From contig CAZZHA010000002.1 of NCBI GenBank assembly GCA_964653685.1, positions 1-44,083 on the forward strand: a DNA stretch of 44,083 nt, given 5' to 3'. Every line of letters begins with the position of its first letter. Within the stretch, counting starts at the first letter, position 1. Both the position numbers and the translations under genes were made by a program. Below, piece by piece: positions 26,297 to 29,566 of this stretch. A model generated the notes under the pieces. It did not search any database. It was not told the DNA's origin and saw only the letters and a list, made by a program, of their open reading frames with translations. The DNA is from an uncultured Gammaproteobacteria bacterium. Lineage in GTDB: Bacteria; Patescibacteriota; Microgenomatia; PFEM01; JAHIFH01.

Positions 26297-26992
26297 TTAC
26301 TTTTTAAAACCACCAATAATTTTTCTCAGATCTCCATTAAGAATGGCTTCGAGATTGTGGAAACTTTTTTTTAAGCGATGATCCGAGACTCTGTTTTGAG
26401 GAAAGTTGTAGGTTCTTATCTTTTCTGAACGTTCACCTCGACCAATCGCTTCTCTTCTCAAATCACCTAATTGGTTTTGTTTTTTGGCTTGTTCTTTTTC
26501 CCAAAGCCTGGCTCTTAATAAATCCAGGGCAATTTTTCGATTTTGTTCTTGAAATCTTTCTTGCTCACAGGTAACCACAATCCCTGAGGGTTCGTGAATT
26601 AATCTGACGGCCGAGGAGACTTTTTGGACATTTTGGCCACCTTGGGTTGAAGCTCTATAAAACTGCCAGTCTAAATCTTGAGGATTAATTTTAATCTGGT
26701 TTTCGCTAATTTCTGGCAAGATAGCAACCGTGGCGGTTGAAGTATGGATTCGGCCGTGTCTCTCGGTTGTTGGGATTCTTTGGACTCGATGAACACCGGC
26801 CTCTTTTTTTAAGAGTTCGTAAACATTTTTCCCCCTTATTCTTAAAACTCGTTGACCGAGAGTTTTAATCTGCCAGTTTTGTTTTTCGGCAAAGCGGAGA
26901 TACATTCGCAAAAGGTCATCAGCCCAAATTTTAGCCTCATTGCCACCAGCGGCACCGCGAATTTCAATGATGGCAATATCTTGATTCATCAA
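26297..26992 (-). CDS. prfA: peptide chain release factor 1, N-terminally truncated form (231 aa, lacks domain 1)
   Basis: GGQ (STQGGQNVQKVSS) and the RF1-type PxT context (RVQRIPTTERHGRIHTS). The start is 3 nt after the rpmE stop and aligns by eye to about residue 105 of E. coli RF1. Confidence 0.8.
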   Translation of the reverse strand: MMNQDIAIIEIRGAAGGNEAKIWADDLLRMYLRFAEKQNWQIKTLGQRVLRIRGKNVYELLKKEAGVHRVQRIPTTERHGRIHTSTATVAILPEISENQIKINPQDLDWQFYRASTQGGQNVQKVSSAVRLIHEPSGIVVTCEQERFQEQNRKIALDLLRARLWEKEQAKKQNQLGDLRREAIGRGERSEKIRTYNFPQNRVSDHRLKKSFHNLEAILNGDLRKIIGGFKK

Positions 26993-27304: not shown

Positions 27305-28555
27305 TTAGCTTAATTTATCTAGAAGCTGTTTCAAATCTACTTCTTCTTGAGATTTAGCTTTCATATTTCGAAGAGTGAAGATTTTTTTCTTGATTTCTTC
27401 GGGACCAAGAATAATCACATAAGGGATACCTTTGCGGTCTGCGTATTTAAGCTGTTTGTCTAGTTTTGTTTCCGGATCAAGATAGAGTTCGGTTTTAATC
27501 TTGGCCTCTCTTAATTTGTTAGCCAATTCAGTTGAATTCTTTAATGATTCAGAATTAAAAAGAGTTACTAGGACTTTGGTAGATGTAGAAACAAGTTCAG
27601 GCATAAGGTTTTTTTCTTTAATGACATCACAGATACGGTCCAGACCAATGGTGGTGCCGGTGGCAGGAATGTCAGGTCCACCAAGATTAGAAATAAGTTT
27701 GTCATAGCGGCCACCACCAGTAATTGAGCCTATTTTTGGTTCTTCAACAATAGTTTCAAAAACAGGTCCAGTGTAATAGTCAAGCCCTCTTACCAGAGTG
27801 GGATCGAATTGATAAAACCTCTCATCAACTTTTAGTTGTTTTAAATATGCAAAGAGATATTGAAGGTTTTTATCCGGTTTAGCTGATTTAATCAAAGCAA
27901 GAAGTTTTTCTGATTCTTGATCGGTAAGACCTTTTCCTTTAAGTTCTTTTTTGGTTTTGATTGTTCCTATTTTTTCTAATTTATCGATGGTTCTTAAAAG
28001 AGACAATTGCTTATTCTCTGTTTTTATCTTTAAGTCTGACATCAATTTTAAGAGAACCTGGCGACTGTTGATTTTGATAGTAAATTTTTTGAAATTTAGT
28101 TTTTTTAGACATTTATAAATAATGGCAATAATTTCGGCATCGGCTAGGGGAGAGTTCAGGCCAAAGGAATCAATATCACACTGAAGAACCTCACGATATC
28201 TACCTTTTTGAGGTTTTTCAGCCCGCCAAATTCTTTGGATTTGATAGCGCTTGAAAGGCAAACCGATTGTTTGGGAGTAGAGAGCCAGGATTTTTGAAGC
28301 AGGTACAGTTAAGTCATAGATGAGACCAATCTCGCGCTTGCCTTGGTCTTTAAAAGTATAGATAAGTTTGTCGGCTTCTTCGCCATATTTACCTAGAAGG
28401 GTGGCTGCGTATTCTAACGAAGATGTTTCCAAAGGTTCGTAGCCATAAGACTCAAACACCTCTCTTAGGGTGTCAATTACTTTTTGGCGGATAACCATTT
28501 CTTTCGGTAAAAAATCCCGAAAGCCTTTTAAGGTTTGAGTTTTATTTTTAGCCAT
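27305..28555 (-). CDS. hisS: histidyl-tRNA synthetase
   Basis: Class II motifs: GFRDFLP, RYQIQRIWRAEKPQKGRYREVLQCD, RGLDYYTGPVFE, GGGRYDKLI. Confidence 0.95.
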   Translation of the reverse strand: MAKNKTQTLKGFRDFLPKEMVIRQKVIDTLREVFESYGYEPLETSSLEYAATLLGKYGEEADKLIYTFKDQGKREIGLIYDLTVPASKILALYSQTIGLPFKRYQIQRIWRAEKPQKGRYREVLQCDIDSFGLNSPLADAEIIAIIYKCLKKLNFKKFTIKINSRQVLLKLMSDLKIKTENKQLSLLRTIDKLEKIGTIKTKKELKGKGLTDQESEKLLALIKSAKPDKNLQYLFAYLKQLKVDERFYQFDPTLVRGLDYYTGPVFETIVEEPKIGSITGGGRYDKLISNLGGPDIPATGTTIGLDRICDVIKEKNLMPELVSTSTKVLVTLFNSESLKNSTELANKLREAKIKTELYLDPETKLDKQLKYADRKGIPYVIILGPEEIKKKIFTLRNMKAKSQEEVDLKQLLDKLS

Positions 28556-28564
28556 CTTTATTTG

Positions 28565-28593
28565 ATCATAACACTTTTAATAATGACTGACAA
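28565..28593 (-). promoter_or_regulatory. putative internal promoter for hisS (leaderless configuration)
   Basis: On the minus strand: TTGTCA (28593-28588), a 17 nt spacer, TG-T-TATGAT (-10 at 28570-28565), then 9 nt to the ATG at 28555. Confidence 0.45.
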
Positions 28594-28597
28594 TTTG

Positions 28598-28670
28598 GGT
28601 GACTGACGGGATTCGAACCCGCAACCTACTGTTCCACAAACAGTCGCTCTACCCTTGAGCTACAGCCACC
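28598..28670 (-). tRNA. tRNA-His (anticodon GTG) with encoded G-1
   Basis: Cloverleaf read by hand: G-1, acceptor GTGGCTG/CAGTCAC (one G.U), D arm GCTC-AAGGGTA-GAGC, anticodon arm ACTGT-TTGTGGA-ACAGT, T arm GCGGG-TTCGAAT-CCCGT, discriminator C. CCA is not fully encoded. Confidence 0.9.
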
Positions 28671-28694
28671 AAAAAACCAGCCGTTAGCTGGTTT
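28671..28694 (-). terminator. intrinsic terminator (segment 3:4 of the attenuator) immediately upstream of tRNA-His
   Basis: On the minus strand: AAACCAGC-UAACG-GCUGGUUU followed by UUU. The next nucleotide is G-1 of tRNA-His. Confidence 0.7.
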
Positions 28695-28782
28695 CGTTTA
28701 TTTTTCTTTACTTTAATTAATTAAATCATTCTTTCTCTTCCATTACAAAACCAACCAACGATTATTCGCGGTTTTGGTAATG
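28682..28782 (-). promoter_or_regulatory. leader-peptide transcription attenuator (alternative 1:2 / 2:3 / 3:4 structures)
   Basis: Segment 28782-28770 pairs with 28752-28741 (12 bp, one bulge). Segment 28760-28745 pairs with 28697-28682 (16 bp including 3 G.U), which overlaps the terminator 5' arm and loop. Confidence 0.65.
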
Positions 28783-28806
28783 ATGATGAAGAGATAAAGA
28801 TGTCAT
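28762..28806 (-). CDS. His-rich leader peptide MTSLSLHHHYQNRE (14 codons)
   Basis: The ATG lies 9 nt after the -10. There are three consecutive CAT codons (28788-28780), and the TAA stop lies in the loop of hairpin 1:2. Confidence 0.55.
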   Translation of the reverse strand: MTSLSLHHHYQNRE

Positions 28807-28815
28807 CTCGAACCT

Positions 28816-28844
28816 ATTTTATTATTTAGGGGTTTATTTGTCAA
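28816..28844 (-). promoter_or_regulatory. near-consensus promoter driving the leader / tRNA-His unit
   Basis: On the minus strand: TTGACA (28844-28839), a 17 nt spacer, then TAAAAT (28821-28816). Confidence 0.6.
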
Positions 28845-28846
28845 GC

Positions 28847-29566
28847 TTATTCTTCTTCGGGAGCTGAGATTTCTGAAGGAGTTTGATTGGTGACAACCCG
28901 AATCAAATCAGCCGTAACCATCTTTTCGCCATTTTCTCCAGGGATACCCACCACTACCAAACGGTCATCTTCTTCGATATCACTGAAATCAATTTCTTCA
29001 ATTTCTTCATCAACTTTCTTAGTAATTGTTGTTTGGCTTTTAACTTCAATCATGTAGACAGTTTCATTTTTAGGATGTTTAATAGTTAGGACTTTTTCTT
29101 CTTGAGAAATATCGGTGACCACACCAAAAACAACTTCGGTTTCTGGTGCTTGGAATTCTTCGATAACAATAATTCTTTTGGTGTTAAGAGTCGTTTGACT
29201 TTCAGTGTAGCCCATGGCAATTATTTTGCTGCCGATTGAGAGGTCTCCTAATTCAATTTCGTCTTTGTCAGGATTTAAAATAATCACCTCATCATCTGTT
29301 TTAACTTGAGCTTCACCAGATTCTGTTTCCACTGTCAGAGTTGAATTGGCAATTGATTTTAAGGTACCAACCAAAGCACCTTTTTTCTCTTCATCAGCCG
29401 CTTGGAGAACATTTTCAATTCTTTCTTGAACTTGTTCTTTGATTCTTTCATCATCAGGCGAGGGAATTGGAGAAGAAAGAGCATCTTCATTTTCTTGAGC
29501 CAAAGCCCCAACTGAAAAAAGACTAAAAGAAAAAAAGATTGATAAAAGTAAAATGGTTTTTTTCAT
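28847..29566 (-). CDS. secreted hypothetical acidic protein (239 aa)
   Basis: Signal peptide MKKTILLLSIFFSFSLFSVGALAQE, then a repetitive beta-rich acidic body. Confidence 0.6.
   Translation of the reverse strand: MKKTILLLSIFFSFSLFSVGALAQENEDALSSPIPSPDDERIKEQVQERIENVLQAADEEKKGALVGTLKSIANSTLTVETESGEAQVKTDDEVIILNPDKDEIELGDLSIGSKIIAMGYTESQTTLNTKRIIVIEEFQAPETEVVFGVVTDISQEEKVLTIKHPKNETVYMIEVKSQTTITKKVDEEIEEIDFSDIEEDDRLVVVGIPGENGEKMVTADLIRVVTNQTPSEISAPEEE

Follow-up and report, generated by a model that had tools for sequence, protein, structure and literature searches.

We examined a 44,083-nt stretch of DNA (the window; contig CAZZHA010000002.1 of NCBI assembly GCA_964653685.1, GTDB lineage Patescibacteriota; Microgenomatia) in which a candidate leader-peptide attenuator, proposed in an earlier note on this DNA, precedes a tRNA-His gene and hisS, the gene for histidyl-tRNA synthetase (HisRS). 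The locus was read base by base on the minus strand, on which all of its features lie. It begins at the stop codon of a gene of 239 aa with no assigned function (28847-29566; no Pfam match), which adjoins the leader region. Promoter P1 follows (TTGACA at 28844-28839, a 17-nt spacer and TAAAAT at 28821-28816), scoring 11/12 in a consensus scan. Nine nucleotides past its -10 box, the ATG at 28806 opens a 14-codon open reading frame (ORF), MTSLSLHHHYQNRE, with three consecutive CAT histidine codons at 28788-28780, the presumed regulatory codons, and a TAA stop at 28764-28762. An intrinsic terminator, AAACCAGC-UAACG-GCUGGUUU plus UUU (DNA 3' arm GCTGGTTT plus TTT), occupies 28694-28671 with a stem of 8-10 bp followed by six U, giving a leader of ~135 nt from AUG to U tract. 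The U tract directly abuts the genome-encoded G-1 (28670) of tRNA-His (GTG; 28669-28597; ARAGORN; Rfam tRNA, 68 bits). A second promoter-like sequence, P2 (TTGTCA, 17 nt, TG-n-TATGAT; 28593-28565; 10/12 plus an upstream TG), ends 9 nt 5' of the ATG of hisS (28555-27305; 416 aa; Pfam tRNA-synt_His, 1e-42, and HGTP_anticodon), the only hisS gene in the window. The earlier note had placed both promoters, the leader ORF with its His codons and stop, and the order of terminator, tRNA-His and hisS at these same positions.

The leader RNA can adopt mutually exclusive structures. Segment 2, CGUUGGUUGGUUUUGU (DNA CGTTGGTTGGTTTTGT), is G/U-rich, lies at 28760-28745, 2 nt past the stop codon, and forms the 5' strand of the antiterminator. 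Its 3' partner, segment 3 (ACGAAACCAGCUAACG), lies at 28697-28682, and when segment 1 was masked ViennaRNA joined the two at 16 positions, reproducing the pairing given in the earlier note. The minimum free energy (MFE) structure of the free RNA instead contains the 1:2 hairpin (28727-28802), an anti-antiterminator and possible pause hairpin. The earlier note had described this pairing as 12 bp with one bulged C; the pairing exists, but the hairpin is larger than described. Its 5' strand consists of the flanks of the His codons together with the sequence that follows them (UCUCUUC ... CAUUACCAAAACC), its 3' strand includes segment 2 and GUAAUGGAAGAGA, and UCUCUUC, 5' of the His codons, pairs with GAAGAGA. 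We also scanned both strands of the window for ORFs of 6-30 codons with any start and a run of three identical residues, followed within 130 nt by a hairpin and T-run. Exactly one match was returned, namely this leader.

Folding of the leader RNA gave -36.1 kcal/mol (z = -4.5 against shuffles). The effect of a translating ribosome was modelled on a transcript beginning at the AUG and masked as far as 12 nt past the A-site codon's first base, the footprint length being an assumption. Two read-outs were utilized: pairing of the terminator 5' arm with the polymerase at the terminator loop, and the probability at equilibrium that the full leader forms the terminator, P(terminator). In the free RNA, the 1:2 hairpin formed at -23.5 kcal/mol, the terminator arm was paired at 0.02 and P(terminator) was 1.00. 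With the A-site at His codon 1, 2 or 3, the 16-bp antiterminator formed at -18.5 kcal/mol, the arm was paired at 1.00 and P(terminator) fell to 0.00; the result for the window did not depend on which His codon held the A-site. With the A-site at the stop codon, a residual antiterminator of -2.3 kcal/mol was left, the arm was paired at 0.48 and P(terminator) returned to 1.00. Constrained folding therefore yielded the switch that had been predicted from the likeness of the geometry to trp, his and pheM leaders. None of 400 dinucleotide-preserving shuffles of the 112 nt 5' of the terminator displayed this three-state pattern. The same switch was seen in the related loci L081, L086 and L171, and in L084 only with the ribosome at the third His codon. 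It was visible in MFE folds of L003 and L015, and at the first His codon only in L137; in L126, L128, L131 and L008 it held as a kinetic effect, with the transcript truncated. Two further loci, L144 (with a 27-codon ORF) and L119, showed no evident switch in equilibrium folds and were not counted as clear members.

Related hisS loci (the L numbers used here) were collected from GTDB genomes (at most 51% HisS identity among the matches listed), from metagenome contigs (38-95%) and by exact-protein look-up; L003, L008, L015 and L022 come from the GTDB-genome search, among the matches listed. The HisS of the window has many metagenome relatives at 55-77%, and those that are named belong to Patescibacteria/Microgenomates, for example Ca. 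Shapirobacteria at 73%. Four close types carry an equivalent leader with promoter, terminator and segment 2: L081 (HisS 95%; leader MTSLSLHHHCQNRE), L086/L166/L167 (77%; MMSLSLFHHHHDRE), L084/L169 (76%; MTSLSLHHHENDRD) and L171 (68%; MRSLSLHHHDHRE). Across these four and the window the P1 hexamers are invariant, and the spacer between the hexamers varies. A comparison of leader codons 2-9 in the window and L084 shows four synonymous and zero non-synonymous changes, and in all loci the His codons alternate between CAT and CAC and always encode histidine. The RNAalifold consensus comprised the 1:2 hairpin and the terminator, with 4/39 pairs altered on both sides. Three of the double-sided changes fall in the 1:2 helix, for example CAUUAC/GUAAUG in the window to CACCAC/GUGGUG in L086 (UA to CG), and the conserved terminator stem shows one, from GC to AU. 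A further change, CUCUUC/GAAGAG in the window to CUCUAC/GUAGAG in L084, was read directly from the alignment, in which a MAFFT gap hides the pair from the RNAalifold count. The antiterminator was paired in 93.6% of cells over the five sequences, compared with 23-53% when its 3' partner was slid by 1-3 columns.

The same arrangement extends well beyond this clade. A short ORF (sORF) with an HHH run, followed by a terminator at the same place, was present at 13 hisS loci including the window, the HisS of the others being 39-95% identical to that of the window. HHH or HHHH occurred in 12 related loci and HH versions in three more, so that equivalent leader ORFs, of 13-21 codons, were found in 15 related loci; all the related leaders contain a terminator. 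The distant leaders measure 100-111 nt, counted from the ATG through the last base of the U tract, and comprise L102 (HisS 54%; MNKQFNKLSHHHSLA), L093 (57%; MTNKANKLSHHHRPI), L126 (45%; MEIEVLTSSHHHPA), L128 (46%; MKVAKNITIPHHHLL), L131 (46%; MKITVLANSHHHPAFGGR), L008 (45%; MLQNTILLATHHHSHI) and L022 (Buchananbacteria, 39%; MYLNSITNNNHHHK), together with three that have two His codons, namely L003 (Woesebacteria, 48%; ...NHHQPA), L015 (Pacebacteria, 45%; ...AHHTLS) and L137 (44%). L022 has leader, terminator, tRNA-His and hisS in order and is retained as a candidate only, its antiterminator being unconvincing. Relatives thus keep the His-run ORF, the terminator and a matching antiterminator, with CAT/CAC exchanges; a check for such conservation had been proposed in the earlier note. 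In a test for enrichment, 450 nt of upstream sequence per locus was searched for ATG-started sORFs of at most 30 codons with HHH. These occurred 5' of hisS at 12/154 dereplicated loci and at 0/154 reverse complements, and no other residue triple exceeded 6. The terminators split into classes unrelated in sequence (CCAGCC, CCCGCC, CUCCC and CCCUCC), and at 13 loci the segment following the His codons and the stop is complementary to the 5' arm of its own terminator (mean -13.1 kcal/mol), with clearly weaker pairing across loci. None of 50,000 partner permutations matched the pairing to the own terminator.

These results bear on the simplest alternative, in which the hairpin is the terminator of the 28847-29566 gene and the HHH sORF and the complementarities are fortuitous in AT-rich DNA. 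That gene has no other terminator, the hairpin (28674-28694) is also called terminator-like on the plus strand, where no gene converges on it, and the best match to a known His leader family is weak (Rfam His_leader, E 0.3-0.9). Chance would nevertheless have to account for the one-sided enrichment, the failure of every shuffle and permutation, and the compensatory and synonymous substitutions around the sole such sORF in 44 kb. Nor are the related loci assembly duplicates, as their HisS identities span 39-95% to the window and their terminators differ. We consider this explanation vanishingly improbable: because the switch, conservation, covariation, pairing and enrichment results combine, coincidence is ruled out, and leader translation and the alternative pairings are the features under selection.

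The leader peptide is not conserved past the closest clade, except for the His run and the residues encoded by RNA-pairing segments. This is relevant to a second alternative, that P1, the sORF and the terminator constitute an independent small gene, acting in trans through a small RNA and/or a His-containing micropeptide, with no regulated read-through. The terminator would then be the end both of the small gene and of the 239-aa gene upstream. Possession of a promoter and a terminator of its own is compatible with such a gene, as is the retention of P1 and terminator without the ORF in three lineages, and the Sinorhizobium rnTrpL/peTrpL attenuator RNA and leader peptide do have trans functions (PMC7298713). 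Against it stand the lack of conservation of the peptide outside the His run and pairing segments, the conserved geometry, in which the His codons precede a segment able to pair with the own terminator arm, and the conserved position directly 5' of hisS or tRNA-His. We judge it very unlikely as a replacement for attenuation, with which a trans function would in any case be compatible.

Given the parts present in the sequence, their thermodynamic three-state behaviour, and conservation and covariation in relatives, we put the probability that the element is a functional ribosome-mediated (leader-peptide) transcription attenuator sensing the supply of His-tRNA(His) at roughly 85%. In the proposed mechanism, P1 would fire a few nucleotides before the AUG of the 14-codon ORF, which would probably be read as a leaderless message. 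When charged tRNA-His is ample, the ribosome would reach the UAA and cover segment 2, the terminator would form and transcription in vivo would stop one base before tRNA-His. Were the leader to go untranslated, the 1:2 hairpin would sequester segment 2, again allowing the terminator to form. A ribosome stalled at any of the three CAU codons would instead cover segment 1 and leave segment 2 free to form 16 bp with the terminator's 5' arm and loop, permitting read-through into tRNA-His and then hisS. If the read-through RNA yields functional tRNA and is translated into HisRS, and if P2 also fires, probably providing basal expression of hisS, the net effect would be feedback control in which a shortage of His-tRNA(His) drives up tRNA-His and HisRS.

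Several observations weigh against this account. The promoter, the terminator and translation of the leader are themselves predictions, and the window has three His codons, with two in some relatives, compared with seven in enterobacterial hisL. Compensatory change, which the earlier note had proposed to look for in all three helices, was seen in the 1:2 helix and the terminator stem, whereas the antiterminator displays one-sided changes only, without double-sided compensation, in the closest five sequences. L102 lacks a 1:2 hairpin, and the best antiterminator of L022, at -5.2 kcal/mol, is not convincing. The element is also evolutionarily labile, as close relatives have leader plus tRNA, leader only or nothing. 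L161, L168, L172, L085 and L087 are close relatives without any of its parts, and in L082/L163/L164, L083 and L170 P1 and the terminator are kept with the His ORF gone, which the model does not explain. The latter loci have TTGACA-17-TAAAAT/TAGAAT, a terminator 6-16 nt on, no tRNA, P2 and hisS, and their hisS lies 100-115 nt from the gene upstream. Lastly, P2 is promoter-like, conserved and situated between the terminator or tRNA and hisS, so that hisS may be largely independent of read-through; and as hisS would normally be leaderless from P2, translation from its internal AUG on the read-through RNA is uncertain.

The last two points raise the possibility that the attenuator is real but that its effective target is tRNA-His alone, hisS being expressed from P2 as a leaderless mRNA with little HisRS made via read-through. 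P2, close to the hisS ATG, is kept in close relatives irrespective of leader and tRNA, no Shine-Dalgarno sequence precedes hisS, and no promoter was detected for tRNA-His itself. Most of the leader-bearing relatives nonetheless lack the tRNA: in L084, L102, L003, L015, L126, L128, L131 and L008 the terminator is followed directly by hisS, which must therefore be the target there. Moreover, many internal operon genes in the window also lack a Shine-Dalgarno sequence. We regard a tRNA-only target as unlikely. In sequence terms, the conserved partner of the attenuator is hisS, and tRNA-His is within the unit in some lineages only, lying between terminator and hisS in the window, L081, L086/L166, L171, L093 and probably L022. 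The earlier note had treated tRNA-His and hisS as one gated unit; across relatives hisS is the constant partner, and the tRNA is absent from the unit in many of them. As P2 is conserved regardless of the attenuator, read-through probably supplements a basal level of hisS expression from P2 and is not its sole source.

A simple consensus scan detected no promoter of tRNA-His's own between P1 and the tRNA. Synthesis of tRNA-His would consequently depend on read-through, which would be the most unusual aspect of the locus, though it rests on a negative from that simple scan. The only candidate in the conserved spacer, a poor TG-n-TTTAAT, was rejected; a transcript from it would keep the whole terminator and lose segment 2. 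A more ambitious proposal builds on this dependence: that tRNA-His is promoterless and made mainly via a leaderless His-codon attenuator, constituting a closed-loop His-tRNA(His) homeostat, in organisms unable to make histidine, in a Microgenomates-type clade of the Candidate Phyla Radiation (CPR), possibly with one member of the Buchananbacteria. We hold this tentatively, at slightly worse than even odds. If true, the cell would set the level of a tRNA and its synthetase by the speed of decoding at that tRNA's own codons, and within the literature searched the family would be the first of leader-peptide attenuators in CPR and the first in which a tRNA gene is gated. Tight transcription-translation coupling with leaderless initiation in these bacteria would be a further implication.

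Comparison with known regulatory families indicated that the window leader is not a member of any of them. The match to Rfam His_leader (RF00514; 28668-28786, minus strand) reached 20.1 bits against a gathering threshold of 49, and that to Phe_leader (RF01859) 14.2 bits against 55 (E 7.5). T-box was not among the Rfam matches at E <=10 over 28300-29100 or 28600-28860. The last result concerns the possibility of a direct RNA sensor, either a T-box-like element binding uncharged tRNA-His or another riboswitch, operating with no translation. Precedent exists, since hisS and most other synthetase genes of Firmicutes are under T-box control (PMC2965389, PMC1262725), and these T-boxes likewise couple the synthetase to tRNA-His charging through a terminator/antiterminator choice. 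They do so by direct tRNA binding, however, whereas a translating ribosome is the sensor in our model. No T-box or riboswitch family matched the window even at the permissive cut-off, the leader, only ~135 nt long, lacks specifier-loop architecture, and the in-frame His codons sit within a conserved ORF subject to synonymous variation. A direct sensor is accordingly an alternative to which we attach hardly any credence.

The leader-peptide attenuator is compared here with its nearest functional counterparts. The window leader combines the five sequence-level hallmarks of trp/his/pheM-class attenuators, namely a promoter-proximal ORF, a run of cognate codons, an intrinsic terminator, a mutually exclusive antiterminator and stall/stop geometry. 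Like enterobacterial hisL (RF00514), it has consecutive His codons in a promoter-proximal ORF and mutually exclusive helices, and hisL, as in our model, is read through when a shortage of His-tRNA(His) stalls the ribosome. It differs in having no sequence or structure homology to hisL and three rather than seven His codons, in its target (tRNA and synthetase rather than a biosynthetic operon), in its ORF without a Shine-Dalgarno sequence that is probably leaderless, and in its CPR/Patescibacteria host. Escherichia coli pheM-pheST likewise subjects a synthetase gene to cognate-codon leader-peptide attenuation, and trpS and leuS of Streptomyces are predicted to have attenuators of the classical kind (PMC1262725); these systems concern other amino acids and other phyla, and have no cognate tRNA between terminator and synthetase. 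Closest in its target is the His leader peptide predicted by Naville & Gautheret (2010) 5' of a hisS paralog (hisS*) and hisZ in bacilli (PMC2965389). It too is a comparative-genomics prediction of a short His-codon ORF and premature terminator 5' of a hisS-family gene, but it precedes an extra paralog and hisZ, the Bacillus hisS itself being under T-box control (PMC2965389), whereas the window leader precedes this locus's hisS. The window leader also belongs to a different phylum and has tRNA-His embedded in several lineages. For several Firmicutes, the his operons too are predicted to have His attenuators (PMC9413887). Leaderless polycysteine sORFs are reported to be Cys-responsive attenuators in mycobacteria (bioRxiv 10.1101/834739). 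As reported, they resemble the window leader in placing an sORF at or next to the transcript 5' end, with a codon run that senses one amino acid, and differ in amino acid, phylum and targets.

The earlier note had named pheM-pheST as the established case of an attenuated synthetase and knew of none gating a tRNA gene or found in a CPR-like genome. The first point was too narrow, as the trpS, leuS and hisS-paralog predictions show. The second still held in our literature search, which returned nothing on leader peptides in CPR/Patescibacteria and no leader-peptide attenuator before a tRNA gene; both are weak evidence, most subscription and old scanned papers being outside the scope of the full text covered. 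What is new here is the phylum, this locus's hisS as the target, the embedded tRNA gene in several lineages and the probably leaderless initiation; the mechanism is familiar.

The manner of leader translation was considered from the context of start codons. No conserved Shine-Dalgarno sequence was present at the leader ATG in the related leaders compared, and in most of them 6-10 nt separate P1 from the ATG, L144 and L022 being without a clear box at such a distance. The window ATG, too, lies only 9 nt from the -10 box and lacks a conserved Shine-Dalgarno motif, so that the message carrying the leader ORF is most likely leaderless or nearly so, a point that the earlier note had not made. The same most likely applies to hisS when transcribed from P2. 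In the window as a whole, a motif resembling Shine-Dalgarno precedes only about a third of the long ORFs, and the start contexts suggest widespread leaderless mRNAs in the source genome. As many operon-internal genes lack the motif as well, internal initiation independent of it seems to be normal in this genome. Many first genes in the window lack a Shine-Dalgarno motif and have an extended -10 (TG-n-TAnAAT) that ends 6-9 nt from the ATG, with examples at 1009, 7441, 12918, 21122, 27286(-), 28555(-) and 29566(-).

CPR/Patescibacteria have very small genomes with few recognisable regulators and are generally without amino-acid biosynthesis, and to our knowledge their gene regulation is essentially unstudied. 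A conserved and readable attenuator would mean that these bacteria gauge aminoacyl-tRNA supply via the translating ribosome, and it predicts both transcription-translation coupling and leaderless initiation in CPR. It would extend the range of leader-peptide attenuation to this locus's hisS and, in several lineages, to a tRNA gene. The element is compact and could be studied in a heterologous host. It also supplies a search pattern for uncultivated lineages, in the form of an sORF with cognate codons and, after it, a stretch able to pair with the arm of a downstream terminator.

Within the A/U-rich spacer of the leader lies a perfect 14-bp palindrome, TTTAATTAATTAAA (28725-28712, minus strand), with stop codons in each of the three frames. 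The window, L081, L084 and L086 share it unchanged (HisS 76-95% in the relatives), and it is not found in L171. In the antiterminator fold it makes a small AU hairpin within the loop. It may serve only to shorten the loop, or may be a protein-binding or frame-independent stop element. A role as a repeated operator was dropped, as it occurs once in the window.

Other arrangements were noted around tRNA-His in related loci. In L001 (2840-2895) and L002 (2800-2872), from two more distant genomes of Patescibacteria, two tandem terminator-like hairpins lie directly 5' of tRNA-His and hisS with no His-run ORF; upstream of the L001 tRNA there is only MSLVHA, with a single His codon. Such placement of terminators against tRNA-His may be more widespread in Patescibacteria. 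In L093 (346-575), tRNA-His is followed by two direct repeats of ~77 nt and then hisS. Each repeat has a tRNA-like 3' portion, whose T arm and acceptor end are identical to those of tRNA-His, fused to a different 5' part. A second hairpin with a T-run lies directly before the L093 tRNA, ~180 nt downstream of the His attenuator.

Several contigs with a CPR-type hisS (P0006; L001, L004, L007, L008, L012, L016 and L020) carry labels such as Marinimicrobia, Pseudomonadales and Gammaproteobacteria, which are probably binning or labelling errors. Elsewhere in the window, downstream of the gene for L31, a release-factor-like gene (26297-26992, minus strand; 231 aa, listed start TTG) comprises only the C-terminal half of a PCRF domain and an RF-1 domain, and may be a truncated release factor, an RF-H-like protein or a frameshifted prfB; this short form is syntenic in all close relatives.

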